From Escherichia coli (lineage in GTDB: Bacteria > Pseudomonadota > Gammaproteobacteria > Enterobacterales > Enterobacteriaceae), in NCBI RefSeq assembly GCF_003018255.1, contig NZ_CP027440.1: a stretch of DNA of 64,000 nucleotides; one strand, 5' to 3'. The translations under genes and the position numbers were made by a program. This document shows positions 5,075 to 32,101 of the stretch, in pieces. Below the pieces are notes generated by a model. That model did no database searches. It saw only the letters and a program-made list of their open reading frames with translations, and was not told the DNA's origin. Numbering within the stretch: the first letter of the stretch is position 1; every line of letters starts with the position of its first letter.

Positions 5075-6853
5075 TTATGTGTTTAACAACTCATATTTCT
5101 TAATCTTGCGATAGAGCGTAGCAATGCCGATGCCCAGTTCATCAGCAACTTCCTTCTTGCTGTTATGACGTGAAAGCGCCTCGCGGATCATTTGCTTTTC
5201 CATCTCCTCCAGCGCCGTGCCGCCCGCATCATCGAGTGCCAGGTGCGCCTCACTGACCTCTGTTACATCACTTTGCTCCGTTGTGCCATTATTCAGCAGA
5301 TTTGGCGGCAATAGCGTGCTGTCGATAACTTCACCTGAAGGAACCACGTTAACCAGATATTCCATCAAATTGCTTAACTCGCGCAGGTTTCCGGGCCAAC
5401 GATGCTTACGCAATATTTCGACGACATCGGGAGCAATGCCCGGATAAACCGATCCCAGACGACGGGTATGCAGATGTAAAAAGTAATGCACCAGTAGTTC
5501 AATATCTTCCTGACGTTCACGCAGCGGTGGCAGAGTTATCGGGATAACATTAAGTCGGTAGAAGAGATCTTCGCGGAATTTACCTTCGGAAATGAACTGG
5601 GCCAAATTCTGGTTAGTTGCAGAAATGATGCGAATGTCGACTTGTATTGGGCTACTGGCACCAATCGGCAGAATTTCACGTGCCTCAATAGCGCGCAGTA
5701 ATTTAGCCTGCAACATTAATGGCATATCACCTATTTCATCGAGAAACAGCGTGCCCGTATTCGCCGCCTGAATCAACCCTGTTTTACCGTTGGCAGAAGC
5801 GCCAGTAAATGCGCCTTTAACATAACCGAACAGTTCGCTCTCCAGAAGCTGCTCCGGAATCGCGGCACAGTTGATAGCAATAAAAGGTTTATTCCGTCTT
5901 CCGCTCAACTTATGGATTGCACGGGCGACGACTTCTTTACCCGTGCCGCTTTCGCCAACCACCATAACGCTGGATGGGCTGGGTGCAATACGGCTAATGA
6001 GTCGTTTTAATTGCCGCATAACACGGCACTCGCCAACCAATTGTTCAATATGCGGTTCATCAGGTGCATTTGCTACAGAAAAACTGGTATGCGATTGGTG
6101 AAACGCCATTAAAAATAATTGTCGGCCCTGAATGTTATGCAATTGACCAATGATTAATTCACTTTTATCGTCCCACGAAACAATATGCTGCATATGTCCA
6201 TGGGTAAAATTACTCTCAAATGTTAATGGTCTGAAACGAACAGGTTTCCCAATAATATTATTTTGCACAACACCGAGTGTTTTTAAGGCAGTCTGATTAA
6301 CAAACTGAACCCGATTTTCGTCATCAACAACTAAAACGCCCTGATCCATATTATCGATCATGGTCGCGAATATTTTACTGATGTTATCTCCTGGCCCCTG
6401 ATCCTCCAGAAGTTTCGAAACAAAAATGGTGGATATATGGCGAACGTAATCAGAAAATTCGCGTAAATTATCACTGATATGTTCTTGTTGCTCGTGGGTA
6501 ACGGCAATCAAACTTATCACCCCAACACAACGATCCTGTAAAATGACAGGCGTACCCAGAAATGCTTTTTCGCGGCAATTTTCTTTACTATCGCAACCTT
6601 CACAAAGGGGATCGAAGCGAGACTGTGTCACAACTTTTTCAGTTTTCGTTTCCAGGACGTGGCGGAGCAGGCGTGAGTTGCCGCTCAACTGGCGACCAAG
6701 AAACTTCCCATACGCGCCCGTTCCGGCGACGCGACACAAGTTTTCATCAACGATCTCAACCTCAAGCTGCAAAACGCTGGCAAGCATTCTGGCAAAACGC
6801 TGAATTGTCGGTTGAATTTGCATCAATACTGACTGCGTAGTAGCAAGCTCCAT
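5075..6853 (-). CDS. ygeV: sigma-54-dependent transcriptional activator (bacterial enhancer-binding protein)
   Basis: 592 aa; Walker A GESGTGKE, sigma-54 contact motif GAFTGA, C-terminal HTH (IATLYRKIKKY), N-terminal sensory region. Confidence 0.9.
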   Translation of the reverse strand: MELATTQSVLMQIQPTIQRFARMLASVLQLEVEIVDENLCRVAGTGAYGKFLGRQLSGNSRLLRHVLETKTEKVVTQSRFDPLCEGCDSKENCREKAFLGTPVILQDRCVGVISLIAVTHEQQEHISDNLREFSDYVRHISTIFVSKLLEDQGPGDNISKIFATMIDNMDQGVLVVDDENRVQFVNQTALKTLGVVQNNIIGKPVRFRPLTFESNFTHGHMQHIVSWDDKSELIIGQLHNIQGRQLFLMAFHQSHTSFSVANAPDEPHIEQLVGECRVMRQLKRLISRIAPSPSSVMVVGESGTGKEVVARAIHKLSGRRNKPFIAINCAAIPEQLLESELFGYVKGAFTGASANGKTGLIQAANTGTLFLDEIGDMPLMLQAKLLRAIEAREILPIGASSPIQVDIRIISATNQNLAQFISEGKFREDLFYRLNVIPITLPPLRERQEDIELLVHYFLHLHTRRLGSVYPGIAPDVVEILRKHRWPGNLRELSNLMEYLVNVVPSGEVIDSTLLPPNLLNNGTTEQSDVTEVSEAHLALDDAGGTALEEMEKQMIREALSRHNSKKEVADELGIGIATLYRKIKKYELLNT

Positions 6854-7222
6854 AGCTTTACCTTCCAGACTTACTTAAAAGTCGATCATTGAAGACGTTG
6901 ATGGTTCATAGATCATGATGATATTAACTCAGGCGAAATTGGCTTTGATAAAAACATAAGATTTTTATCACTTTCTAATGAAATTATGGAAGAGATATCA
7001 CATTTCTATATCAATATGAGAATTACGGCGGTGAGTTTATCAAACTGAAGAGAGATCGCCTGTCCCTTTATCTTATTTCTGATACTTAGCAGCAAATAAA
7101 TAACGCGATAAAAAAAGCCAAACGTTTTCGTATTTTACAAACAACCAGAAGCTGGCATCAATTTGTGATCAACCCCACACATTATCCGTCAAATTAGTCT
7201 TTTGCAGCCCCGTGGATAATTC

Positions 7223-7238
7223 TGGCACACTTATTGTT
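7223..7238 (+). promoter_or_regulatory. candidate sigma-54 -24/-12 promoter upstream of ygeW
   Basis: TGGCACacttaTTGTT: exact -24 TGGCAC, correct spacing, -12 TTGT instead of TTGC; about 90 nt upstream of the ygeW ATG. Confidence 0.35.
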
Positions 7239-8576: not shown

Positions 8577-9773
8577 ATGTCCGTTTTCTCATTGAAGATT
8601 GATATCGCCGATAACAAATTTTTCAACGGCGAAACATCACCGCTTTTTTCGCAAAGCCAGGCAAAACTGGCACGCCAGTTCCACCAGAAAATTGCTGGTT
8701 ATCACCCAACACCGCTTTGTGCGCTGGACGATCTCGCAAACCTGTTTGGTGTAAAGAAAATTCTCGTCAAAGACGAATCAAAACGATTCGGTCTGAACGC
8801 CTTCAAAATGCTTGGCGGTGCGTACGCCATCGCTCAATTATTGTGTGAAAAATATCATCTTGATATCGAAACGCTGTCATTTGAGCACCTGAAAAATGCC
8901 ATCGGCGAAAAAATGACTTTCGCGACTACCACCGACGGCAACCACGGGCGCGGTGTGGCATGGGCAGCACAGCAACTCGGACAGAATGCGGTGATTTACA
9001 TGCCGAAAGGTTCTGCTCAGGAACGCGTTGACGCCATTCTAAACCTCGGTGCCGAGTGCATCGTCACGGATATGAACTATGACGATACCGTTCGCCTGAC
9101 CATGCAACACGCGCAGCAGCACGGCTGGGAAGTGGTACAGGACACGGCATGGGAAGGTTACACCAAAATCCCAACCTGGATCATGCAAGGCTACGCAACA
9201 CTGGCGGATGAAGCCGTCGAGCAAATGCGTGAAATGGGCGTCACCCCGACACACGTTCTGCTGCAAGCCGGTGTCGGTGCAATGGCCGGTGGTGTGCTGG
9301 GTTATCTGGTCGACGTCTATAGCCCGCAAAATCTGCACAGCATTATTGTTGAACCTGACAAAGCTGACTGTATTTATCGCTCCGGCGTCAAAGGCGACAT
9401 CGTCAACGTTGGCGGTGATATGGCCACCATCATGGCGGGCCTGGCCTGCGGCGAACCTAACCCACTGGGCTGGGAAATCCTACGTAACTGCGCCACCCAA
9501 TTCATCTCCTGCCAGGACAGCGTTGCCGCATTAGGTATGCGCGTGCTGGGTAATCCGTATGGCAACGACCCGCGCATCATCTCCGGTGAATCCGGCGCTG
9601 TCGGTTTGGGCGTTCTCGCAGCGGTTCATTATCACCCGCAACGTCAAAGCCTGATGGAAAAACTGGCGCTGAACAAAGATGCCGTGGTGCTGGTTATCAG
9701 CACTGAAGGCGACACCGACGTGAAGCACTACCGCGAAGTTGTCTGGGAAGGCAAACACGCTGTAGCACCTTAA
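8577..9773 (+). CDS. ygeX: PLP-dependent 2,3-diaminopropionate ammonia-lyase
   Basis: 398 aa; fold-type II PLP enzyme lysine motif (NAFKMLGGAY). Confidence 0.85.
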   Translation: MSVFSLKIDIADNKFFNGETSPLFSQSQAKLARQFHQKIAGYHPTPLCALDDLANLFGVKKILVKDESKRFGLNAFKMLGGAYAIAQLLCEKYHLDIETLSFEHLKNAIGEKMTFATTTDGNHGRGVAWAAQQLGQNAVIYMPKGSAQERVDAILNLGAECIVTDMNYDDTVRLTMQHAQQHGWEVVQDTAWEGYTKIPTWIMQGYATLADEAVEQMREMGVTPTHVLLQAGVGAMAGGVLGYLVDVYSPQNLHSIIVEPDKADCIYRSGVKGDIVNVGGDMATIMAGLACGEPNPLGWEILRNCATQFISCQDSVAALGMRVLGNPYGNDPRIISGESGAVGLGVLAAVHYHPQRQSLMEKLALNKDAVVLVISTEGDTDVKHYREVVWEGKHAVAP

Positions 9774-15173: not shown

Positions 15174-15944
15174 CTAATTCACAAATCTGCGCGCGATTGC
15201 AGGATGTTCTTGTATATCGCCCAGCCAGATTGCCTCTACGTCGTGTTGTTGCAGCGGTTGAAGGAGCTCGCTTTGCGCAATCGCATTCTCACATTGAGAA
15301 AAACGGTTAATGAACCAGACTCGCCGACAACCTTGCGGTACGTTTTTAAACGCCCCCTGAGGGTGGCGAACCAGCGCAACGAGATCGCTCAGTTGCAAGG
15401 TTGCATCAGGTGTTAACCCGGTAATATCAGCAAACTGCGACCAGCGATGGACATTTTCTGTGCTCACTTTCGCACCCAAAATATGTCCTCCCATCACAGC
15501 AATCACGCAGCAACTGCTTTTAGGTATGCAAGGTTCGTGCTCATCAGGCGCTTTTAACGGCATTCCACGCGAGCCATCTGCCTCAATGAGAATTACGTCA
15601 CACTCTGATCGTTGTACCAGTGCATCAATCGCTTCTGGCGTAAATCCCTGCACTTTTCCCTGGTTCGCTTTCCAGCTGTGAAAACAAAATGAAATGGGGG
15701 ATATAAAAGACGCATGAGGAAGCATGGCGGGATCACGACAGAAAACCACGGGCCAGTGAGATGTTGGCATAAACATATGTGTCGTCGTAGTGATTAATAC
15801 ACGCCTGCCGCTCGCCTGGAACAGTTCTGCCAGCCAAAAAAGCAAGCTGGTTTTCCCCCCAGCACCAACAACAGAAATCACAGTGGGACGTTTCTGCGCG
15901 CCTAAATCAATGAATAATGCCGATGGGTCAATTATACTTTTCAC
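15174..15944 (-). CDS. yqeC: putative selenium-dependent molybdenum hydroxylase accessory protein (P-loop)
   Basis: 256 aa; P-loop-like VVGAGGKTSLLFWL. Confidence 0.75.
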   Translation of the reverse strand: MKSIIDPSALFIDLGAQKRPTVISVVGAGGKTSLLFWLAELFQASGRRVLITTTTHMFMPTSHWPVVFCRDPAMLPHASFISPISFCFHSWKANQGKVQGFTPEAIDALVQRSECDVILIEADGSRGMPLKAPDEHEPCIPKSSCCVIAVMGGHILGAKVSTENVHRWSQFADITGLTPDATLQLSDLVALVRHPQGAFKNVPQGCRRVWFINRFSQCENAIAQSELLQPLQQHDVEAIWLGDIQEHPAIARRFVN

Positions 15945-16047
15945 GCGTCTTTATGGACCTCTCTGGGATAAATTACCCTCAACTTAATCCATCAGGAAGT
16001 AACGCAATTATCAGGCGTTATTAGCTCCTGTAAATAATGGAATCACT

Positions 16048-16626
16048 ATGTCAGCCATCGACTGTATAATTACCGCCGCAGGATTATCATCAAGAATGGG
16101 GCAATGGAAAATGATGTTACCCTGGCAACAGGGAACAATTCTTGATACAAGTATCAAAAATGCGTTGCAGTTTTGTAGCCGAATTATTTTAGTCACCGGC
16201 TATCGTGGTAATGAACTGCACGAACGTTATGCGAACCAGAGCAATATCACTATTATCCACAACCCAGATTATGCGCAGGGTTTACTGACATCAGTAAAGG
16301 CCGCAGTACCCGCGGTGCAAACAGAACATTGTTTTCTCACCCACGGAGATATGCCAACCCTCACCATCGATATTTTTAGAAAAATCTGGTCGTTACGAAA
16401 TGATGGCGCAATACTGCCACTCCATAATGGCATCCCCGGCCATCCGATTTTAGTGTCAAAACCATGCCTGATGCAGGCAATCCAGCGACCCAATGTCACC
16501 AATATGCGTCAGGCACTCCTTATGGGAGAACATTATTCCGTCGAAATAGAAAATGCAGAAATAATTTTAGATATTGATACTCCTGACGACTTTATTACAG
16601 CGAAGAAAAGGTATACTGAAATTTAG
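16048..16626 (+). CDS. mocA: molybdenum cofactor cytidylyltransferase
   Basis: 192 aa; nucleotidyltransferase N-terminal motif ITAAGLSSRMG; divergent from yqeC. Confidence 0.85.
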   Translation: MSAIDCIITAAGLSSRMGQWKMMLPWQQGTILDTSIKNALQFCSRIILVTGYRGNELHERYANQSNITIIHNPDYAQGLLTSVKAAVPAVQTEHCFLTHGDMPTLTIDIFRKIWSLRNDGAILPLHNGIPGHPILVSKPCLMQAIQRPNVTNMRQALLMGEHYSVEIENAEIILDIDTPDDFITAKKRYTEI

Positions 16627-16677
16627 AAAACGTAGTTAAACGATTGCGTTCAAATATTTAATCCCTCCAGCACTCTT

Positions 16678-16692
16678 TATCATAATGATAAG
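16678..16692. promoter_or_regulatory. perfect 7-1-7 palindrome TTATCAT-A-ATGATAA upstream of ygfK
   Basis: Read directly from the sequence; further TGATAA/TTATCAC-type half-sites nearby (16723-16730 GTGATAAA). Confidence 0.3.
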
Positions 16693-16859
16693 GAATCACT
16701 GATTTTGAGAAAAGAGAAAAAGTGATAAATGGGCTGGCAATAATAATTTTCAGGAGTGATTTTAATTCTCATTTGGCACCTGTGAGTTCATTCACAAAAA
16801 GCCATTAAGTTTCGAGCCGCCTCACATTTTTTTATATTTCCCGCCAAACCTGGCAAGAG

Positions 16860-16875
16860 TGGTGCGATTGTTGCT
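16860..16875 (+). promoter_or_regulatory. candidate sigma-54 -24/-12 promoter upstream of ygfK
   Basis: TGGtgCGattgTTGCT: GG-N10-GC spacing with TTGC -12 element; about 75 nt upstream of the ygfK ATG. Confidence 0.35.
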
Positions 16876-16947
16876 CTATCCCCCTAAACCACCGGATTTC
16901 TCAACACCGGTCACTCAATGATATCTGTATAAGCTAAGGAGAGGGTT

Positions 16948-19900
16948 ATGGGGGATATTATGCGTCCCATTCCGTTTGAGGAACTTTTGACGCGCATATT
17001 TGATGAATACCAACAACAACGCTCAATCTTTGGTATTCCCGAGCAACAGTTTTACTCACCCGTAAAAGGTAAAACTGTTAGCGTCTTCGGTGAAACCTGT
17101 GCCACTCCCGTCGGCCCTGCCGCTGGCCCGCACACGCAGCTCGCGCAAAATATTGTCACTTCCTGGCTGACTGGCGGACGCTTCATCGAACTAAAAACCG
17201 TCCAAATTCTTGACCGCCTGGAGCTGGAAAAGCCCTGTATCGATGCCGAAGACGAGTGCTTTAACACCGAATGGTCTACCGAATTTACCCTGCTTAAAGC
17301 CTGGGATGAATACCTCAAAGCCTGGTTTGCCCTGCACCTTCTCGAAGCGATGTTCCAGCCTTCTGATTCCTGTAAATCGTTCATCTTTAATATGAGCGTC
17401 GGTTACAACCTCGAAGGTATTAAGCAACCGCCGATGCAGCAGTTCATCGACAATATGATGGACGCATCTGACCATCCGAAATTCGCTCAATACCGCGATG
17501 CACTTAATAAGCTACTCCAGGATGACGCATTTTTAGCCCGCCACGGCTTACAGGAAAAACGCGAAAGCTTGCAAGCCTTACCCGCTCGCATCCCCACCAG
17601 CATGGTACAAGGGGTTACCCTCTCCACCATGCACGGCTGTCCTCCGCATGAAATCGAAGCCATTTGCCGCTACATGCTGGAAGAAAAAGGGCTCAACACC
17701 TTTGTGAAACTCAACCCGACCTTACTGGGGTACGCGCGTGTTCGTGAGATCCTCGATGTCTGCGGTTTCGGTTACATCGGCTTAAAAGAAGAGTCATTTG
17801 ATCACGACCTCAAGCTGACGCAAGCACTGGAAATGCTGGAACGCCTGATGGCACTGGCAAAAGAAAAATCACTCGGCTTTGGCGTAAAACTGACTAACAC
17901 TCTCGGCACCATTAATAACAAAGGCGCACTGCCCGGTGAAGAGATGTATATGTCAGGCCGTGCGCTGTTCCCGCTCTCCATCAACGTTGCAGCAGTTCTC
18001 TCTCGCGCCTTTGACGGCAAACTGCCCATTTCTTATTCCGGTGGTGCCAGTCAGCTGACTATCCGCGATATTTTTGATACTGGTATTCGCCCTATTACTA
18101 TGGCAACCGACCTGCTGAAACCTGGCGGCTATCTGCGCTTAAGTGCCTGCATGCGCGAGCTGGAAGGCTCAGATGCCTGGGAGCTTAACCACGTTGACGT
18201 CGAACGACTGAACAGACTGGCAGCAGACGCGTTAACCATGGAATACACCCAGAAACACTGGAAGCCAGAAGAGCGTATTGAAGTGGCTGAAGACCTGCCG
18301 CTGACCGATTGCTACGTTGCCCCCTGTGTTACTGCCTGCGCTATCAAGCAAGATATTCCGGAATACATCCGTCTGCTTGGCGAACACCGCTATGCCGACG
18401 CGCTGGAACTCATCTATCAACGCAACGCCCTGCCCGCCATTACCGGTCATATTTGCGATCACCAGTGCCAATACAACTGTACCCGCCTGGATTACGACAG
18501 TGCGCTGAATATCCGCGAACTGAAAAAAGTCGCGCTGGAAAAAGGTTGGGATGAATATAAGCAACGCTGGCACAAACCAGCCGGTTCTGGTTCACGCCAT
18601 CCGGTTGCCGTGATTGGTGCAGGTCCGGCGGGTCTGGCAGCAGGTTACTTCCTTGCCAGAGCGGGCCATCCGGTTACGCTGTTTGAACGCGAAGCCAATG
18701 CGGGCGGCGTGGTGAAAAATATCATTCCTCAGTTCCGTATTCCTGCAGAGTTAATTCAGCACGATATCGATTTTGTTGCCGCTCACGGCGTAAAATTTGA
18801 GTATGGCTGCTCACCGGATCTGACCGTTGAACAGTTAAAAAATCAGGGCTTCCACTATGTTCTGATTGCCACCGGCACTGATAAAAATAGCGGTGTGAAA
18901 CTGGCGGGCGACAACCAAAATGTCTGGAAATCACTCCCCTTCCTGCGTGAATACAACAAGGGCACAGCGCTCAAGCTGGGCAAACATGTGGTCGTTGTCG
19001 GGGCGGGTAACACGGCAATGGACTGCGCTCGTGCGGCGTTACGCGTTCCAGGCGTAGAAAAAGCAACGGTCGTTTACCGTCGTTCACTGCAAGAGATGCC
19101 AGCATGGCGCGAAGAGTATGAAGAAGCGTTGCACGACGGCGTGGAGTTCCGTTTCCTGAATAATCCGGAACGTTTCGATGCTGATGGCACCTTAACCTTG
19201 CGCGTTATGTCGCTTGGCGAACCTGATGAGAAAGGTCGTCGCCGTCCGGTTGAAACCAACGAAACAGTAACACTGCATGTAGACAGCCTGATCACCGCCA
19301 TTGGTGAACAGCAGGATACTGAAGCCCTGAATGCGATGGGCGTGCCGCTGGACAAAAACGGCTGGCCAGACGTCGACCATAATGGCGAAACGCGTCTGAG
19401 TGACGTCTTTATGATCGGCGACGTACAGCGCGGACCATCCTCCATTGTCGCTGCTGTCGGAACCGCGCGTCGGGCGACCGATGCCATCCTGAGTCGGGAA
19501 AATATCCGTTCCCACCAGAACGATAAATACTGGAATAACGTCAATCCGGCGGAAATCTATCAACGTAAAGGCGATATCTCTGTCACTCTGGTGAACAGTG
19601 ACGATCGTGACGCGTTTGTCGCGCAGGAAGCCGCTCGCTGCCTTGAATGTAACTACGTTTGCAGCAAGTGTGTGGATGTCTGCCCGAACCGCGCCAACGT
19701 ATCCATTGCGGTCCCAGGCTTCCAGAACCGTTTCCAGACGCTGCATCTCGACGCCTACTGCAACGAATGCGGCAACTGCGCCCAATTCTGCCCGTGGAAC
19801 GGTAAACCGTACAAAGACAAAATCACCGTCTTCAGCCTGTCGCAAGACTTTGATAACAGCAGCAACCCAGGCTTCCTTGTGGAAGATTGCCGGGTACGCG

Positions 19901-20046
19901 TACGTCTGAATAACCAAAGCTGGGTGTTAAACATCGACAGCGAAGGTCAGTTCAACAACGTACCACCGGAGCTGAACGATATGTGCCGCATCATTAGCCA
20001 TGTCCACCAGCATCATCATTATCTGCTGGGCCGTGTGGAGGTGTAA
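16948..20046 (+). CDS. ygfK: large Fe-S flavoprotein oxidoreductase (glutamate synthase beta-like domain plus 4Fe-4S ferredoxin domains)
   Basis: 1032 aa; dinucleotide-binding [14 protein letters not shown]; Cys clusters CLECNYVCSKCVDVCP and CNECGNCAQFCP. Confidence 0.85.
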   Translation: MGDIMRPIPFEELLTRIFDEYQQQRSIFGIPEQQFYSPVKGKTVSVFGETCATPVGPAAGPHTQLAQNIVTSWLTGGRFIELKTVQILDRLELEKPCIDAEDECFNTEWSTEFTLLKAWDEYLKAWFALHLLEAMFQPSDSCKSFIFNMSVGYNLEGIKQPPMQQFIDNMMDASDHPKFAQYRDALNKLLQDDAFLARHGLQEKRESLQALPARIPTSMVQGVTLSTMHGCPPHEIEAICRYMLEEKGLNTFVKLNPTLLGYARVREILDVCGFGYIGLKEESFDHDLKLTQALEMLERLMALAKEKSLGFGVKLTNTLGTINNKGALPGEEMYMSGRALFPLSINVAAVLSRAFDGKLPISYSGGASQLTIRDIFDTGIRPITMATDLLKPGGYLRLSACMRELEGSDAWELNHVDVERLNRLAADALTMEYTQKHWKPEERIEVAEDLPLTDCYVAPCVTACAIKQDIPEYIRLLGEHRYADALELIYQRNALPAITGHICDHQCQYNCTRLDYDSALNIRELKKVALEKGWDEYKQRWHKPAGSGSRHPVAVIGAGPAGLAAGYFLARAGHPVTLFEREANAGGVVKNIIPQFRIPAELIQHDIDFVAAHGVKFEYGCSPDLTVEQLKNQGFHYVLIATGTDKNSGVKLAGDNQNVWKSLPFLREYNKGTALKLGKHVVVVGAGNTAMDCARAALRVPGVEKATVVYRRSLQEMPAWREEYEEALHDGVEFRFLNNPERFDADGTLTLRVMSLGEPDEKGRRRPVETNETVTLHVDSLITAIGEQQDTEALNAMGVPLDKNGWPDVDHNGETRLSDVFMIGDVQRGPSSIVAAVGTARRATDAILSRENIRSHQNDKYWNNVNPAEIYQRKGDISVTLVNSDDRDAFVAQEAARCLECNYVCSKCVDVCPNRANVSIAVPGFQNRFQTLHLDAYCNECGNCAQFCPWNGKPYKDKITVFSLSQDFDNSSNPGFLVEDCRVRVRLNNQSWVLNIDSEGQFNNVPPELNDMCRIISHVHQHHHYLLGRVEV

Positions 20047-20048
20047 TC

Positions 20049-21377
20049 ATGTTGATTCTGAAGAATGTCACCGCAGTGCAGTTACACCCAGCGAAAGTGC
20101 AGGAAGGCGTTGATATCGCCATCGAAAATGATGTGATTGTCGCTATCGGCGATGCCCTGACGCAACGCTACCCCGATGCCAGCTACAAAGAGATGCATGG
20201 TCGGATTGTGATGCCAGGAATTGTCTGCTCGCACAACCATTTTTACTCGGGGCTGTCCCGCGGAATTATGGCAAACATCGCCCCCTGCCCGGATTTCATC
20301 TCAACGCTGAAAAATCTCTGGTGGCGACTCGATCGCGCCCTTGATGAAGAGTCGCTCTATTACAGCGGACTGATTTGTTCCCTGGAAGCGATTAAGGGCG
20401 GATGTACATCGGTTATCGATCACCATGCCTCTCCGGCGTATATCGACGGGTCGCTCTCCACATTGCGCAACGCATTTTTAAAAGTTGGCCTGCGCGCGAT
20501 GACCTGTTTTGAAACTACTGACCGTAACAACGGTATCAAAGAGTTGCAGGAAGGTGTAGAAGAAAACATCCGCTTCGCCCGTCAGATTGATGATGCGAAG
20601 AAAGCGGCAACTGAACCGTATCTGGTAGAGGCTCATATTGGTGCTCACGCGCCGTTTACTGTGCCGGATGCCGGTCTGGAAATGCTGCGTGAGGCCGTGA
20701 AAGCCACAGGCCGTGGTTTACATATTCACGCTGCGGAAGACCTTTACGATGTTTCCCATAGTCATCACTGGTACGGCAAAGATCTGCTGGCACGATTAGC
20801 GCAATTCGATCTCATCGACAGCAAAACGCTGGTCGCTCATGGGCTTTATCTGTCTAAAGACGACATCGCGTTGCTCAATCAGCGTGATGCATTCCTGGTG
20901 CATAACGCCCGTTCAAACATGAACAACCATGTCGGCTACAACCATCATCTTTGCGACATCCGCAATCTGGCGTTGGGTACGGACGGTATTGGTTCAGATA
21001 TGTTTGAAGAGATGAAATTTGCCTTCTTTAAACATCGCGATGCGGGTGGTCCGCTGTGGCCTGACAGCTTTGCCAAAGCTCTGGCTAACGGCAACGAACT
21101 GATGAGCCGCAACTTTGGCGCGAAATTTGGCCTTCTGGAAGCCGGTTACAAAGCCGATTTAACCATTTGCGATTACAACTCGCCGACGCCGCTGCTGGCA
21201 GACAATATCGCCGGGCATATCGCTTTCGGTATGGGCTCAGGCAGCGTTCACAGCGTGATGGTCAATGGTGTGATGGTCTATGAAGACCGTCAGTTTAACT
21301 TCGATTGCGATTCCATTTATGCGCAAGCCAGAAAAGCCGCTGCCAGTATGTGGCGTCGGATGGATGCGCTGGCATAA
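20049..21377 (+). CDS. ssnA: amidohydrolase-superfamily aminohydrolase (chlorohydrolase-like)
   Basis: 442 aa; metal-binding HxH (CSHNHF); starts 3 nt after the ygfK stop. Confidence 0.85.
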   Translation: MLILKNVTAVQLHPAKVQEGVDIAIENDVIVAIGDALTQRYPDASYKEMHGRIVMPGIVCSHNHFYSGLSRGIMANIAPCPDFISTLKNLWWRLDRALDEESLYYSGLICSLEAIKGGCTSVIDHHASPAYIDGSLSTLRNAFLKVGLRAMTCFETTDRNNGIKELQEGVEENIRFARQIDDAKKAATEPYLVEAHIGAHAPFTVPDAGLEMLREAVKATGRGLHIHAAEDLYDVSHSHHWYGKDLLARLAQFDLIDSKTLVAHGLYLSKDDIALLNQRDAFLVHNARSNMNNHVGYNHHLCDIRNLALGTDGIGSDMFEEMKFAFFKHRDAGGPLWPDSFAKALANGNELMSRNFGAKFGLLEAGYKADLTICDYNSPTPLLADNIAGHIAFGMGSGSVHSVMVNGVMVYEDRQFNFDCDSIYAQARKAAASMWRRMDALA

Positions 21378-21427
21378 ATAACAGCTCCCCTCTTCTTTCA
21401 GAGAAGAGGGGAAATTAAGGAAAGACG

Positions 21428-22207
21428 ATGATTGAACAATTTTTCAGACCCGACTCTGTCGAACAGGCGCTGGAACTGAAGCGCCGCTACCAGGATGAAG
21501 CCGTCTGGTTCGCCGGGGGCAGCAAACTCAACGCTACACCAACCCGTACCGATAAAAAGATTGCCATTTCCTTACAGGATCTGGAACTGGACTGGGTTGA
21601 CTGGGATAACGGTGCACTGCGGATTGGCGCGATGTCTCGCTTGCAAACACTGCGTGATGCGCGATTTATTCCTGCAGCACTGCGTGAAGCTCTCGGTTTT
21701 GTTTACTCACGCCATGTTCGTAATCAGTCGACCATTGGTGGTGAAATTGCCGCCCGGCAAGAAGAGTCAGTGCTGCTTCCCGTCCTGCTGGCACTGGATG
21801 CTGAACTGGTTTTTGGCAACGGCGAAACTCTGTCAATTGAGGAGTACCTGGCCTGCCCATGCGATCGCCTGCTAACCGAAATCATCATTAAAGATCCGTA
21901 TCGCACCTGTGCGACTCGCAAAATTAGCCGTTCTCAGGCAGGTTTAACCGTCGTGACGGCAGCCGTTGCAATAACAGACCACGACGGTATGCGAATTGCG
22001 CTGGATGGCGTAGCCAGTAAAGCACTGCGTCTGCACGATGTTGAAAAACAAAACCTGGAAGGTGATGCCCTTGAACAGGCTGTCGCCAACGCCATTTTCC
22101 CGCAGGAAGATTTGCGGGGCAGCGTGGCCTATAAACGCTATATCACGGGAGTTCTGGTAGCCGACCTTTATGCCGACTGCCAACAGGCTGGGGAGGAAGC
22201 CGTATGA
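21428..22207 (+). CDS. ygfM: FAD-binding molybdopterin dehydrogenase subunit-like protein
   Basis: 259 aa; CO dehydrogenase flavoprotein-like; stop overlaps xdhD start. Confidence 0.8.
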   Translation: MIEQFFRPDSVEQALELKRRYQDEAVWFAGGSKLNATPTRTDKKIAISLQDLELDWVDWDNGALRIGAMSRLQTLRDARFIPAALREALGFVYSRHVRNQSTIGGEIAARQEESVLLPVLLALDAELVFGNGETLSIEEYLACPCDRLLTEIIIKDPYRTCATRKISRSQAGLTVVTAAVAITDHDGMRIALDGVASKALRLHDVEKQNLEGDALEQAVANAIFPQEDLRGSVAYKRYITGVLVADLYADCQQAGEEAV

Positions 22208-25074
22208 TCATCCACTTTACTTTAAATGGCACGCCCCAGGAGCTAACCGTTAATCCTGGTGAAAACGTGCAAAAGCTGTTGTTTAACATGGGAATGCACT
22301 CTGTACGCAACAGCGATGATGGCTTTGGGTTTGCCGGTTCTGACGCAATTATCTTTAACGGTAATATCGTTAACGCGTCCTTGCTTATCGCCGCACAGTT
22401 AGAGAAGGCAGATATTCGTACCGCAGAATCTCTGGGCAAATGGAATGAGTTAAGTCTGGTTCAACAGGCCATGGTTGATGTTGGCGTGGTGCAGTCTGGT
22501 TATAACGATCCAGCTGCGGCTCTGATTATCACCGATCTTCTCGATCGCATCGACGCACCTACCCGCGAAGAGATCGACGACGCGCTCTCAGGTCTGTTTA
22601 GCCGCGATGCTGGCTGGCAGCAATACTATCAGGTCATTGAACTGGCGGTTGCACGTAAAAATAATCCGCAGGCCACCATTGATATCGCTCCGACTTTCCG
22701 TGACGACCTTGAAGTCATTGGCAAGCATTATCCTAAAACTGATGCCGCGAAAATGGTGCAGGCGAAACCCTGCTATGTTGAAGATCGCGTAACGGCTGAC
22801 GCCTGCGTCATTAAAATGTTACGTAGCCCACACGCTCACGCACTGATTACTCATCTGGATGTCAGCAAAGCTGAAGCCTTACCGGGCGTCGTTCACGTTA
22901 TTACTCACCTGAATTGCCCGGATATTTACTATACCCCGGGTGGTCAGAGCGCACCGGAACCGTCACCGCTTGACCGCCGAATGTTCGGCAAGAAAATGCG
23001 TCACGTCGGCGATCGCGTTGCTGCGGTCGTCGCTGAAAGTGAAGACATTGCGCTCGAAGCACTGAAGCTCATCGACGTTGAATATGAAGTGCTTAAGCCG
23101 GTAATGTCGATTGACGAGGCAATGGCGGAAGATGCGCCTGTCGTGCACGATGAACCGGTGGTGTATGTTGCTGGTGCACCAGATACTCTGGAGGAAGATA
23201 ACTGTCATGCAGCCCAGCGCGGCGAGCATATGATCATCAACTTCCCGATCGGTTCTCGCCCACGCAAAAATATCGCTGCCAGTATTCATGGTCATATTGG
23301 TGATATGGACAAAGGCTTTGCCGATGCCGATGTGATCATTGAGCGAACCTATAACTCAACGCAGGCGCAGCAGTGCCCGACTGAAACACATATCTGCTTT
23401 ACCCGTATGGACGGCGATCGTCTGGTGATCCACGCCTCCACCCAGGTACCATGGCACTTACGCCGCCAGGTCGCGCGCCTCGTGGGCATGAAACAACATA
23501 AAGTTCATGTCATTAAAGAACGTGTAGGCGGCGGTTTTGGCTCTAAACAGGACATCCTGCTGGAAGAAGTGTGCGCCTGGGCAACTTGCGTGACCGGGCG
23601 TCCGGTACTTTTCCGCTACACCCGTGAAGAAGAGTTTATTGCTAACACCTCTCGTCACGTAGCGAAAGTCACCGTCAAACTGGGCGCGAAAAAAGATGGT
23701 CGCCTGACGGCAGTGAAGATGGATTTCCGCGCCAACACTGGTCCTTACGGTAACCACTCACTCACCGTACCGTGTAACGGACCGGCGCTGTCGCTGCCGT
23801 TATATCCATGCGATAACGTCGATTTCCAGGTCACCACCTACTACAGCAACATTTGCCCAAATGGTGCTTATCAGGGTTATGGCGCACCGAAAGGTAACTT
23901 CGCTATCACCATGGCGTTAGCGGAACTGGCGGAACAATTGCAGATCGACCAACTGGAAATTATTGAACGTAATCGTGTACACGAAGGGCAGGAGTTGAAA
24001 ATTCTCGGTGCGATTGGTGAAGGTAAAGCGCCGACATCCGTTCCTTCCGCCGCCAGCTGCGCACTGGAAGAGATCCTGCGTCAGGGTCGCGAGATGATCC
24101 AATGGTCTTCACCAAAACCGCAAAATGGTGACTGGCACATCGGTCGCGGCGTCGCCATTATCATGCAGAAATCAGGGATCCCAGATATCGATCAGGCTAA
24201 CTGCATGATCAAACTGGAATCAGACGGTACCTTTATCGTTCATTCTGGCGGTGCGGATATTGGTACTGGTTTGGATACTGTGGTGACGAAACTGGCAGCA
24301 GAAGTGCTGCACTGCCCCCCGCAGGACGTGCATGTTATCTCCGGTGATACCGATCATGCGTTGTTTGATAAAGGCGCATATGCCTCGTCCGGTACTTGCT
24401 TCTCGGGTAACGCTGCGCGTTTGGCAGCGGAAAATCTGCGGGAGAAAATCCTGTTCCACGGCGCGCAAATGTTGGGTGAGCCAGTGGCAGATGTTCAACT
24501 AGCAACGCCGGGCGTCGTTCGCGGCAAGAAAGGCGAAGTTAGTTTCGGAGAGATAGCCCATAAAGGCGAAACCGGCACCGGCTTTGGTTCACTGGTGGGA
24601 ACTGGCAGTTATATCACGCCTGATTTCGCCTTCCCGTATGGCGCAAACTTCGCTGAAGTTGCCGTCAACACGCGTACGGGTGAAATCCGCCTGGATAAAT
24701 TCTACGCCTTGCTGGACTGCGGTACACCGGTCAATCCAGAGTTAGCGCTGGGACAAATCTACGGTGCCACCCTGCGTGCTATCGGCCACAGTATGAGCGA
24801 AGAGATCATTTATGACGCCGAAGGTCACCCGTTAACGCGTGATTTACGCAGTTACGGCGCACCGAAAATTGGTGACATTCCGCGTGATTTCCGCGCTGTG
24901 CTGGTGCCGAGCGACGATAAAGTCGGCCCATTCGGGGCGAAATCGATCTCGGAAATCGGTGTAAATGGCGCCGCTCCGGCGATTGCTACCGCAATTCACG
25001 ATGCCTGCGGCATCTGGTTACGCGAATGGCATTTCACACCGGAGAAAATACTCACCGCGCTGGAAAAAATATAA
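22204..25074 (+). CDS. xdhD: molybdenum hydroxylase large subunit (xanthine dehydrogenase family) with N-terminal extension
   Basis: 956 aa; Mo-pterin hydroxylase family with a Cys-poor ferredoxin-like N-terminal region. Confidence 0.85.
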   Translation: MIIHFTLNGTPQELTVNPGENVQKLLFNMGMHSVRNSDDGFGFAGSDAIIFNGNIVNASLLIAAQLEKADIRTAESLGKWNELSLVQQAMVDVGVVQSGYNDPAAALIITDLLDRIDAPTREEIDDALSGLFSRDAGWQQYYQVIELAVARKNNPQATIDIAPTFRDDLEVIGKHYPKTDAAKMVQAKPCYVEDRVTADACVIKMLRSPHAHALITHLDVSKAEALPGVVHVITHLNCPDIYYTPGGQSAPEPSPLDRRMFGKKMRHVGDRVAAVVAESEDIALEALKLIDVEYEVLKPVMSIDEAMAEDAPVVHDEPVVYVAGAPDTLEEDNCHAAQRGEHMIINFPIGSRPRKNIAASIHGHIGDMDKGFADADVIIERTYNSTQAQQCPTETHICFTRMDGDRLVIHASTQVPWHLRRQVARLVGMKQHKVHVIKERVGGGFGSKQDILLEEVCAWATCVTGRPVLFRYTREEEFIANTSRHVAKVTVKLGAKKDGRLTAVKMDFRANTGPYGNHSLTVPCNGPALSLPLYPCDNVDFQVTTYYSNICPNGAYQGYGAPKGNFAITMALAELAEQLQIDQLEIIERNRVHEGQELKILGAIGEGKAPTSVPSAASCALEEILRQGREMIQWSSPKPQNGDWHIGRGVAIIMQKSGIPDIDQANCMIKLESDGTFIVHSGGADIGTGLDTVVTKLAAEVLHCPPQDVHVISGDTDHALFDKGAYASSGTCFSGNAARLAAENLREKILFHGAQMLGEPVADVQLATPGVVRGKKGEVSFGEIAHKGETGTGFGSLVGTGSYITPDFAFPYGANFAEVAVNTRTGEIRLDKFYALLDCGTPVNPELALGQIYGATLRAIGHSMSEEIIYDAEGHPLTRDLRSYGAPKIGDIPRDFRAVLVPSDDKVGPFGAKSISEIGVNGAAPAIATAIHDACGIWLREWHFTPEKILTALEKI

Positions 25075-25083
25075 GTAATAAAT

Positions 25084-25113
25084 GGCCGCTTCGGCGGCCT
25101 GTTTCTCTGTTTG
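25084..25113 (+). terminator. intrinsic terminator after xdhD
   Basis: GGCCGC-ttcg-GCGGCC hairpin followed by TGTTTCTCTGTTT. Confidence 0.6.
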
Positions 25114-31819: not shown

Positions 31820-32101
31820 TTGCATCCCTTTCATTTAATGAGTTATGTCTTCTCAAATTTCGCGATGCAATAAATGGGCATGTATTAGGTAGCATGGCCG
31901 ATTTAATTATAATTTTGCGACTGAGTTCAAATTATTGCCCCTCAATCTATGCAGCTTTCATTATTTCAACATTGCCGATCAAAAGAATGCTATCCAGATA
32001 AAAACGATTAAATGCGAGAGTGCGACATGCCAGAATGATTAATGAAATATCAATATGAGAAAATTACAGATAATTCCATTGTCAGGTTCTCTTCTCATTT
32101 T

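Follow-up and report, generated by a model that had tools for sequence, protein, structure and literature searches.

A Conserved Sigma-54 Promoter Element Upstream of the ygfK-ssnA-ygfM-xdhD Genes of Escherichia coli and Its Candidate YgeV Enhancer

The ygfK transcription unit in the uric acid gene cluster

The window, that is, the whole 64,000-nucleotide (64-kb) stretch of Escherichia coli DNA that was analyzed, harbors a purine/uric acid gene cluster, here named according to the RefSeq annotation of an identical strain. The genes are arranged in the order xdhABC, ygeV, ygeW-dpaL-ygeY-hyuA-arcC, yqeB-yqeC, mocA (ygfJ), ygfK-ssnA-ygfM-xdhD, xanQ-guaD-ghxQ, ygfS-ygfT, and uacT. The features that define the transcription unit and its presumed regulator are as follows.

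16948..25074, plus strand: ygfK-ssnA-ygfM-xdhD transcription unit (open reading frames, RefSeq annotation, YgeV iModulon co-membership)
16948-20046, plus strand: ygfK (open reading frame, RefSeq annotation)
20049-21377, plus strand: ssnA (open reading frame, RefSeq annotation)
21428-22207, plus strand: ygfM (open reading frame, RefSeq annotation)
22204-25074, plus strand: xdhD (open reading frame, RefSeq annotation)
25084..25099, plus strand: terminator-like G+C-rich hairpin GGCCGCttcgGCGGCC, 10 nt past the xdhD stop
5075..6853, minus strand: ygeV, encoding a bacterial enhancer-binding protein (Pfam and annotation)

The products of ygfK-ssnA-ygfM-xdhD carry out the 2,8-dioxopurine branch of anaerobic uric acid breakdown, with YgfK being the 2,8-dioxopurine oxidoreductase. 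The four genes are part of the pathway by which gut bacteria remove uric acid, which is of current interest for gout, hyperuricaemia, and engineered probiotics. The original prediction had grouped them into a single unit, and the data agree: the genes are separated by gaps of 2, 50, and −4 nt, a hairpin follows xdhD, and all four belong to the “YgeV iModulon” together with xdhABC, ygeWXY-hyuA, and ygfT (Lamoureux et al. 2023, PMC10602906). The hairpin at 25084-25099 is bidirectional (GGCCGC/GCGGCC) and probably constitutes the end of the unit; because the T tract that follows it (TGTTTCTCTG) is weak, read-through into xanQ may occur. A hairpin with a 12-bp stem is also present in the 50-nt ssnA-ygfM gap (21385-21413), its T tract being on the minus strand only.

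Among the genes of the cluster, ygeV alone encodes an enhancer-binding protein. The Pfam matches of YgeV are Sigma54_activat (2.5e-70), AAA_lid_14, HTH_8 (5.7e-13), and PAS_8 (1.7e-6).

The -24/-12 element and its occupancy by sigma-54

The 16 bases originally flagged, TGGTGCGATTGTTGCT at 16860-16875 on the plus strand, lie on the sense strand of the 321-nt mocA-ygfK spacer and form part of a 17-nt element.

16859..16875, plus strand: sigma-54 -24/-12 promoter element GTGGTGCGATTGTTGCT (sequence, PWM, ChIP-seq identity, conservation)
16886, plus strand: predicted transcription start of ygfK (motif centre + 19, the rule of Table 1 in Bonocora 2015), 62 nt before the ATG

The element employs GG at 16861-16862 and GC at 16873-16874, so that the GG-N10-GC spacing and the TTGC -12 sequence of the original prediction are exact. 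The motif ends 72 nt 5′ of the ygfK ATG at 16948, in keeping with the earlier estimate of about 75 nt. The predicted start-to-ATG distance of 62 nt may be compared with those of the other intergenic sense sites of Table 1, most of which range from 18 to ~250 nt.

The motif by itself is not informative at the scale of the window. The consensus TGGCACG-N4-TTGCW, with at most two mismatches, is matched 11 times in 64 kb versus 15.9 ± 3.8 times in shuffled sequences, so that matching the consensus does not in itself exceed chance expectation. A position weight matrix (PWM) of 17 columns, derived from the 130 sigma-54 motifs that Bonocora et al. 2015 obtained by ChIP-seq outside the window, assigns 14.16 bits to the ygfK 17-mer, close to the true-site median of 14.39 bits. 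The site ranks second of ~128,000 window positions, with only the known xdhA promoter (1301-1317, 15.43 bits) scoring higher, and the ygeW promoter (7222-7238, 13.86 bits) ranks fourth. Scores of at least 14.16 bits are nevertheless expected once or twice per 64 kb on both strands, a level not above chance, while 0.0024 are expected on the sense strand of the 321-nt spacer. Since both consensus and PWM matches occur at chance level window-wide, motif statistics alone cannot validate the ygfK site. Two further PWM matches are intragenic, namely CTGGCGGAACAATTGCA in xdhD (23926-23942, plus strand, 14.06 bits) and CTGGCACGATTAGCGCA in ssnA (20787-20803, plus strand, 13.49 bits). Both are absent from the high-stringency ChIP-seq list and probably represent either weak intragenic sites or matches by chance.

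The decisive evidence for the ygfK site is instead a published ChIP-seq peak and conservation in 74 of 79 loci. These two observations refute the notion of a functionless chance match to GG-N10-GC, which draws on the frequency of comparable matches in the window and whose probability is now negligible. As reported by Bonocora, Smith, Lapierre and Wade (PLoS Genet 2015, PMC4591121), peak OS31 is assigned to ygfK (b2878), with its centre at 3014019, a FAT of 26, the motif GTGGTGCGATTGTTGCT on the plus strand, and 62 nt from the predicted start to the gene. OS31 and the site described here are the same object, with identical 17-mer, strand, gene, and distance; the window strain is an E. coli other than K-12, and the site itself is no different. 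The same source further states that the ChIP signal was lost in ΔrpoN at 13/13 sites tested, that the EcoCyc status of the ygfK site is “P” (predicted) while that of xdhA is experimentally confirmed, and that the conservation of the ygfK site is already scored in several other genera (S5 Table). The site is thus already known from the EcoCyc prediction, Zhao 2010, and Bonocora 2015, and, having been mapped by ChIP-seq in 2015, the promoter element adds no new knowledge. The additions made here concern the breadth of conservation, the choice of register, and an inferred architecture comprising a candidate YgeV enhancer, a CRP site at a fixed position, and a leader hairpin.

ygfK had been proposed to head a third enhancer-dependent unit of the cluster. 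The assignment as a sigma-54 unit is supported, but the count is too low, since the ChIP-seq study lists five sites in the cluster: ygfK, xdhA (OS29, FAT 11), ygeW (OS30, FAT 3), ygfT (OS32, FAT 3), and one inside yqeC (IS34, FAT 7) (PMC4591121). The IS34 site (15527-15543, minus strand) is directed toward yqeB, reads TGAGCACGAACCTTGCA, and scores 9.0 bits in the window; a palindrome-like sequence, TCTCACATTGAGA, is found ~240 nt downstream of it. The ygfT site (31866-31882, minus strand) reads CATGCCCATTTATTGCA in the window strain and TATGCCCGTTTATTGCA in K-12. It has TGCC where a GG dinucleotide would be expected and reaches no more than 5.4 bits, although it corresponds to the K-12 peak OS32. 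In a genomic SELEX experiment with the RpoN holoenzyme in vitro, the ygeV/ygeW spacer is listed, and neither ygfK nor ygfJ/mocA is mentioned (PMC8743547).

The breadth of conservation was assessed by comparing the first 400 residues of YgfK with species-representative genomes, which yielded 80 loci, 79 of them with enough upstream DNA. In 74 of the 79, the best sense-strand PWM match within 400 nt has a score of ≥11.5 bits and is located 57-154 nt upstream of the ygfK start codon; the antisense-strand maxima are mostly below 7 bits. The element is found in Escherichia, Citrobacter, Klebsiella, Trabulsiella, Edwardsiella, Serratia, Morganella, and Erwinia, as well as in Aeromonas, Vibrio, Photobacterium, Shewanella, and, among some beta-proteobacteria, metagenome-assembled genomes of Rhodocyclaceae and Comamonadaceae. 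Four Spirochaete loci of the 79, in which the upstream palindrome described below is absent as well, lack the element, as does one Ideonella locus. In an alignment of 16 Enterobacterales spacers upstream of ygfK (A1), GG and TTGC are invariant; across the loci, the other positions drift (TGGTGC, TGGCGT, TGGCCT, and TGGCTT). Of 5426 complete E. coli genomes, 5168 contain the mocA-ygfK spacer at ≥95% identity.

Conservation also bears on the register of the element. A second GG-N10-GC arrangement, CTGGCAAGAGTGGTGCG at 16850-16866 on the plus strand, begins 9 nt upstream and overlaps the ygfK site. This is the register that Zhao et al. 2010 gave to ygfK, listed as aaccTGGCAAGAGTGGTGCGATtgtt (PMC2831329), and the resolution of ChIP-seq cannot split sites that are 9 bp apart. 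It was rejected as the main element on the basis of its score (8.12 versus 14.16 bits), its -12 sequence (GTGC, not TTGC), and its TGGCAAG portion, which is not conserved beyond Escherichia whereas the downstream register is invariant. MEME likewise picked the downstream register in the ChIP-seq study (PMC4591121). It is therefore very unlikely that the upstream register is the functional one; judged from the alignments, the conserved register is 16859-16875, as in both the original prediction and Bonocora 2015.

Occupancy does not by itself establish promoter function. Bonocora et al. point out that sigma-54 binding is not proof of a productive promoter (PMC4591121), and, according to the literature, RNA polymerase-sigma-54 resides at the ygfK site in a closed complex also while the operon is not expressed. 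The holoenzyme could bind unproductively, with ygfK transcripts stemming from mocA read-through or an unrecognized sigma-70/sigma-38 promoter. A scan of the mocA-ygfK spacer revealed no terminator-like site after mocA, so that read-through could contribute to ygfK transcription. However, a simple consensus scan of the sense strand from 16000 to 17100, which includes the spacer, found no sigma-70-like promoter, and ygfK responds to the dose of rpoN, its microarray signal rising 2.1-fold when sigma-54 is overexpressed and falling 2.4-fold when rpoN is deleted, effects of only ~2-fold (Zhao et al. 2010, PMC2831329). In addition, ygfK shares its regulation with the remaining sigma-54 units of the cluster (PMC10602906). 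The site, its distance to ygfK, the upstream palindrome, and the leader hairpin are conserved across bacterial orders, and such conservation would not be maintained at a dead site. Unproductive binding is for these reasons improbable.

In MG1655, Liu et al. describe ygfK as “highly induced” by uric acid (bioRxiv 10.1101/2022.07.24.501321). A mapped ygfK transcription start and a reporter or mutant test of the promoter were sought in the openly accessible literature, and none was found. On the strength of OS31 at the identical 17-mer, the rpoN-dose response, and the YgeV iModulon, the sigma-54 reading of the original prediction is upheld, and 16859-16875 is very probably the -24/-12 element of a sigma-54 operon promoter that would be driven by YgeV in the manner proposed below.

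Conserved elements of the spacer and the leader

Several conserved elements accompany the promoter. Distances refer to the predicted start at 16886, and strand is left unassigned except for the leader hairpin.

16678..16690: palindrome TATCAtaaTGATA, centered at -202, a candidate enhancer (UAS) for YgeV (conservation)
16703..16712: conserved block TTTTGAGAAA (A1), at -177.5, in which TGAGAA is the inverted partner of TTCTCA at 16766-16771
16754..16773: conserved block GAGTGATTTTAATTCTCATT (A1), with TTCTCA centered at -117.5
16781..16796: perfect CRP consensus TGTGAgttcatTCACA, centered at -97.5, the sole zero-mismatch match in the window
16811..16826: conserved element TTCGAgccgccTCACA, TTnGA-N6-CTCACA at -67.5, half CRP-like
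16891..16911, plus strand: leader hairpin ACCGG-N11-CCGGT, +6 to +26, conserved in structure
1170-1182, 1191-1203, 6911-6923, 7009-7021, 8853-8865, 15287-15299, 16678-16690, and 32048-32060: TATCA-N3-TGATA-like palindromes of the cluster

The TATCA and TGATA half-sites of the palindrome are invariant in the 16 Enterobacterales of A1, while the central 3 nt differ among species. In nearly all gamma-proteobacterial loci, the palindrome is located at -181/-182, -202/-203, or -214/-215, positions that are one or two helical turns apart. TATCAN3TGATA with at most one mismatch occurs six times in the window versus 1.35 expected, and 0/100 shuffles reach six. When the window is scored with a symmetrised PWM from 62 distinct ygfK-orthologue sites, all eight best matches fall inside the cluster, six of the eight in the four spacers with sigma-54 ChIP sites. 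The spacer matches score 24.1 bits (ygfK), 20.2 bits (ygfT-uacT), 19.2 and 10.6 bits (ygeV-ygeW), and 13.5 and 9.8 bits (upstream of xdhA); the intragenic ones score 15.9 bits (dpaL, also termed ygeX) and 12.6 bits (yqeC). With respect to the predicted starts, the palindromes lie at -202 for ygfK, -199 for ygfT, -234/-332 for ygeW, and -152/-131 for xdhA. On the basis of this recurrence upstream of the xdhA, ygeW, and ygfT sigma-54 sites, TATCA-N3-TGATA is probably the enhancer to which YgeV binds.

The ygeV-ygeW and ygfT-uacT spacers share an identical 13-mer, TATCAATATGAGA. Outside the Enterobacterales, which are single-copy, a second and weaker palindrome (TATTAAATTGATA) is found 18-19 bp downstream of the main site in most Photobacterium loci, in the loci of Shewanella marina, Aliivibrio, and Psychromonas, and in that of one Vibrio MAG (among loci L053-L078). 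In Morganella (L045-L047, ~2479-2732) and Ferrimonas (L051, ~2461-2745), a divergent sigma-54-like site of 14.5-14.7 bits shares the ygfK palindrome, which suggests a single enhancer for two divergent sigma-54 promoters. Overall, the palindrome is located upstream of 4/52 other sigma-54-like matches in the loci versus ~1.3 expected; as all four are the ygfK palindrome at divergent promoters, this enrichment is weak as independent support for an enhancer.

The palindrome might instead bind another regulator, the promoter being sigma-54-dependent but served by an activator other than YgeV. The E. coli copy, TTATCATAATGATAA, superficially resembles a Fur-box core, a point in favor of this alternative; since the central 3 nt of the palindrome vary between species, only the E. 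coli sequence has this Fur-like appearance. Links of YgeV to the regulation of indole and LEE have been described too, and the openly accessible literature yielded no direct YgeV-DNA data, no demonstration of direct activation of the ygfK promoter by YgeV, and no described YgeV binding site. Against a different activator, YgeV is the sole enhancer-binding protein of the cluster, and, within the 64 kb, the palindrome is found with each of the four intergenic sigma-54 sites that the cluster contains and scarcely anywhere else. Furthermore, expression of ygfT, the one gene of the iModulon with demonstrated ygeV dependence, is lower in a ygeV mutant (cited in PMC10602906). A different activator is thus unlikely, and YgeV is retained as the candidate.

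Most Enterobacterales keep the CRP-consensus site, with 0-1 mismatches, at precisely -97.5/-98.5. A CRP-like site with one mismatch is also present near ygeW (7164-7179, -77.5), and the two distances differ by 20 bp, or approximately two helical turns. Uric acid degradation is repressed by glucose, and a “native Crp-binding site” in the ygeV-ygeW spacer has been described (2025 preprint, 10.1101/2025.05.19.654654). On the basis of this conservation, CRP is predicted to bind at -97.5 of ygfK, where a positive, DNA-bending role is plausible. Such a role is not the default, because CRP is a repressor at the sigma-54 promoters glnAp2 and dctA; if true, it would reverse the effect that CRP has at those two promoters and would account for the glucose repression of uric acid degradation.

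Strings similar to the block at 16754-16773 occur upstream of ygeW and ygfT (TTCTCATATTGATA) and of xdhA (CTCATATTGATA), and this block is possibly a second activator site. The -67.5 element reads TGCGA-N6-TCACG in Erwinia/Pantoea, and the Shine-Dalgarno block AAGGAGAGGGTTATG is also conserved in A1. Just past the mocA stop, GTTAAACGATTGCGTTCAAAT (16636-16653) is kept in Escherichia, Citrobacter, Klebsiella indica, and Edwardsiella; on the other strand, it presumably resembles a PurR operator (ACGCAAACGTTTGCGT). Inspection by eye gave no convincing match to an IHF site between the enhancer and the promoter.

The leader hairpin is conserved in structure, not in sequence, in Enterobacterales, Aeromonas, and Photobacterium, the stem being kept with altered bases (GCCGG/CCGGC, GTCGG/CCGAC, GGGGTA/TACCCC, and GGCTGA/TCAGCC). 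A hairpin of at least 5 bp that starts at +4 to +11 is present in 47/70 distinct leaders versus 7.2 ± 2.4 in shuffles (maximum 15). The E. coli leader is not unusually stable on folding (z = −0.38), and it is conservation across loci that argues for the putative hairpin. No Rfam family matched 16600-17050, so that ygfK carries no known riboswitch or leader in this region. As the hairpin fits a transcript that begins just upstream of it, the predicted start receives indirect support.

Proposed mechanism and comparison with known systems

In the proposed mechanism, YgeV would bind the conserved TATCA-N3-TGATA palindrome ~200 bp upstream of the promoter and would be activated when its N-terminal sensory region responds to uric acid or to a signal derived from it. 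The activator would then reach the closed complex by DNA looping, probably aided by CRP-cAMP at -97.5, and would open the promoter with ATP. The resulting transcript would start near 16886, carry the 5′ leader hairpin, and end at the hairpin past xdhD.

A more specific reading joins three of these elements: the palindrome would be the YgeV enhancer at phased positions of approximately -181/-202/-214, CRP-cAMP at -97.5 would be a positive, bending co-factor, and the hairpin at +6 would mark and stabilize the 5′ end of the transcript. As part of the same reading, the palindrome would extend across gamma- and some beta-proteobacteria and be common to all sigma-54 units of the uric acid cluster. 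Taken as a whole, this joint reading is tentative, with its chances falling a little short of even. The mode of switching on the operon, which is proposed to combine sigma-54, YgeV, and CRP, is relevant to the engineering of probiotics.

In its accessible part, the paper that defines OS31 does not take up the palindrome, the CRP site, or the leader hairpin (PMC4591121). Within the cluster, the closest relatives of the ygfK promoter are those of xdhA, ygeW, and ygfT, which share the iModulon, have ChIP peaks, and are preceded by palindromes 130-330 bp upstream; ygeW, like ygfK, also has a CRP-like site. The ygfK site gives the strongest ChIP signal of the four, with a FAT of 26 versus 11, 3, and 3, respectively (PMC4591121). 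Its -24 sequence is TGGTGC, in contrast to TGGCAC/TGGCGT in the sister promoters.

The classical counterpart is glnAp2 with NtrC, in which a -24/-12 element holds a closed complex that is poised without transcription until an AAA+ activator bound at upstream palindromes contacts it by looping, a system reportedly described by Ninfa, Reitzer and Magasanik in 1987. There are several differences between the two. NtrC is controlled through a phosphorylated receiver domain, whereas the ygfK activator is probably ligand-sensing (GAF/PAS N-terminus). The glnAp2 enhancers are located at -108/-140, while the candidate enhancer of ygfK is farther away, at -202, and, unlike glnAp2, ygfK harbors a consensus CRP site between enhancer and promoter. 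A further counterpart is prpBCDE with PrpR, a sigma-54 operon under positive CRP control; like the ygfK operon, it would be catabolic and repressed by glucose through CRP.

The pathway itself has a counterpart in Clostridiales, in which the DioR sigma-54 regulon comprises ygeW-ygfK-ssnA-ygeY, dpaL, yqeB/yqeC/ygfJ, and xdhC (Nie et al. 2019, PMC6615313). The same pathway genes are thus placed under sigma-54 and a dedicated enhancer-binding protein in another phylum and in another gene order.
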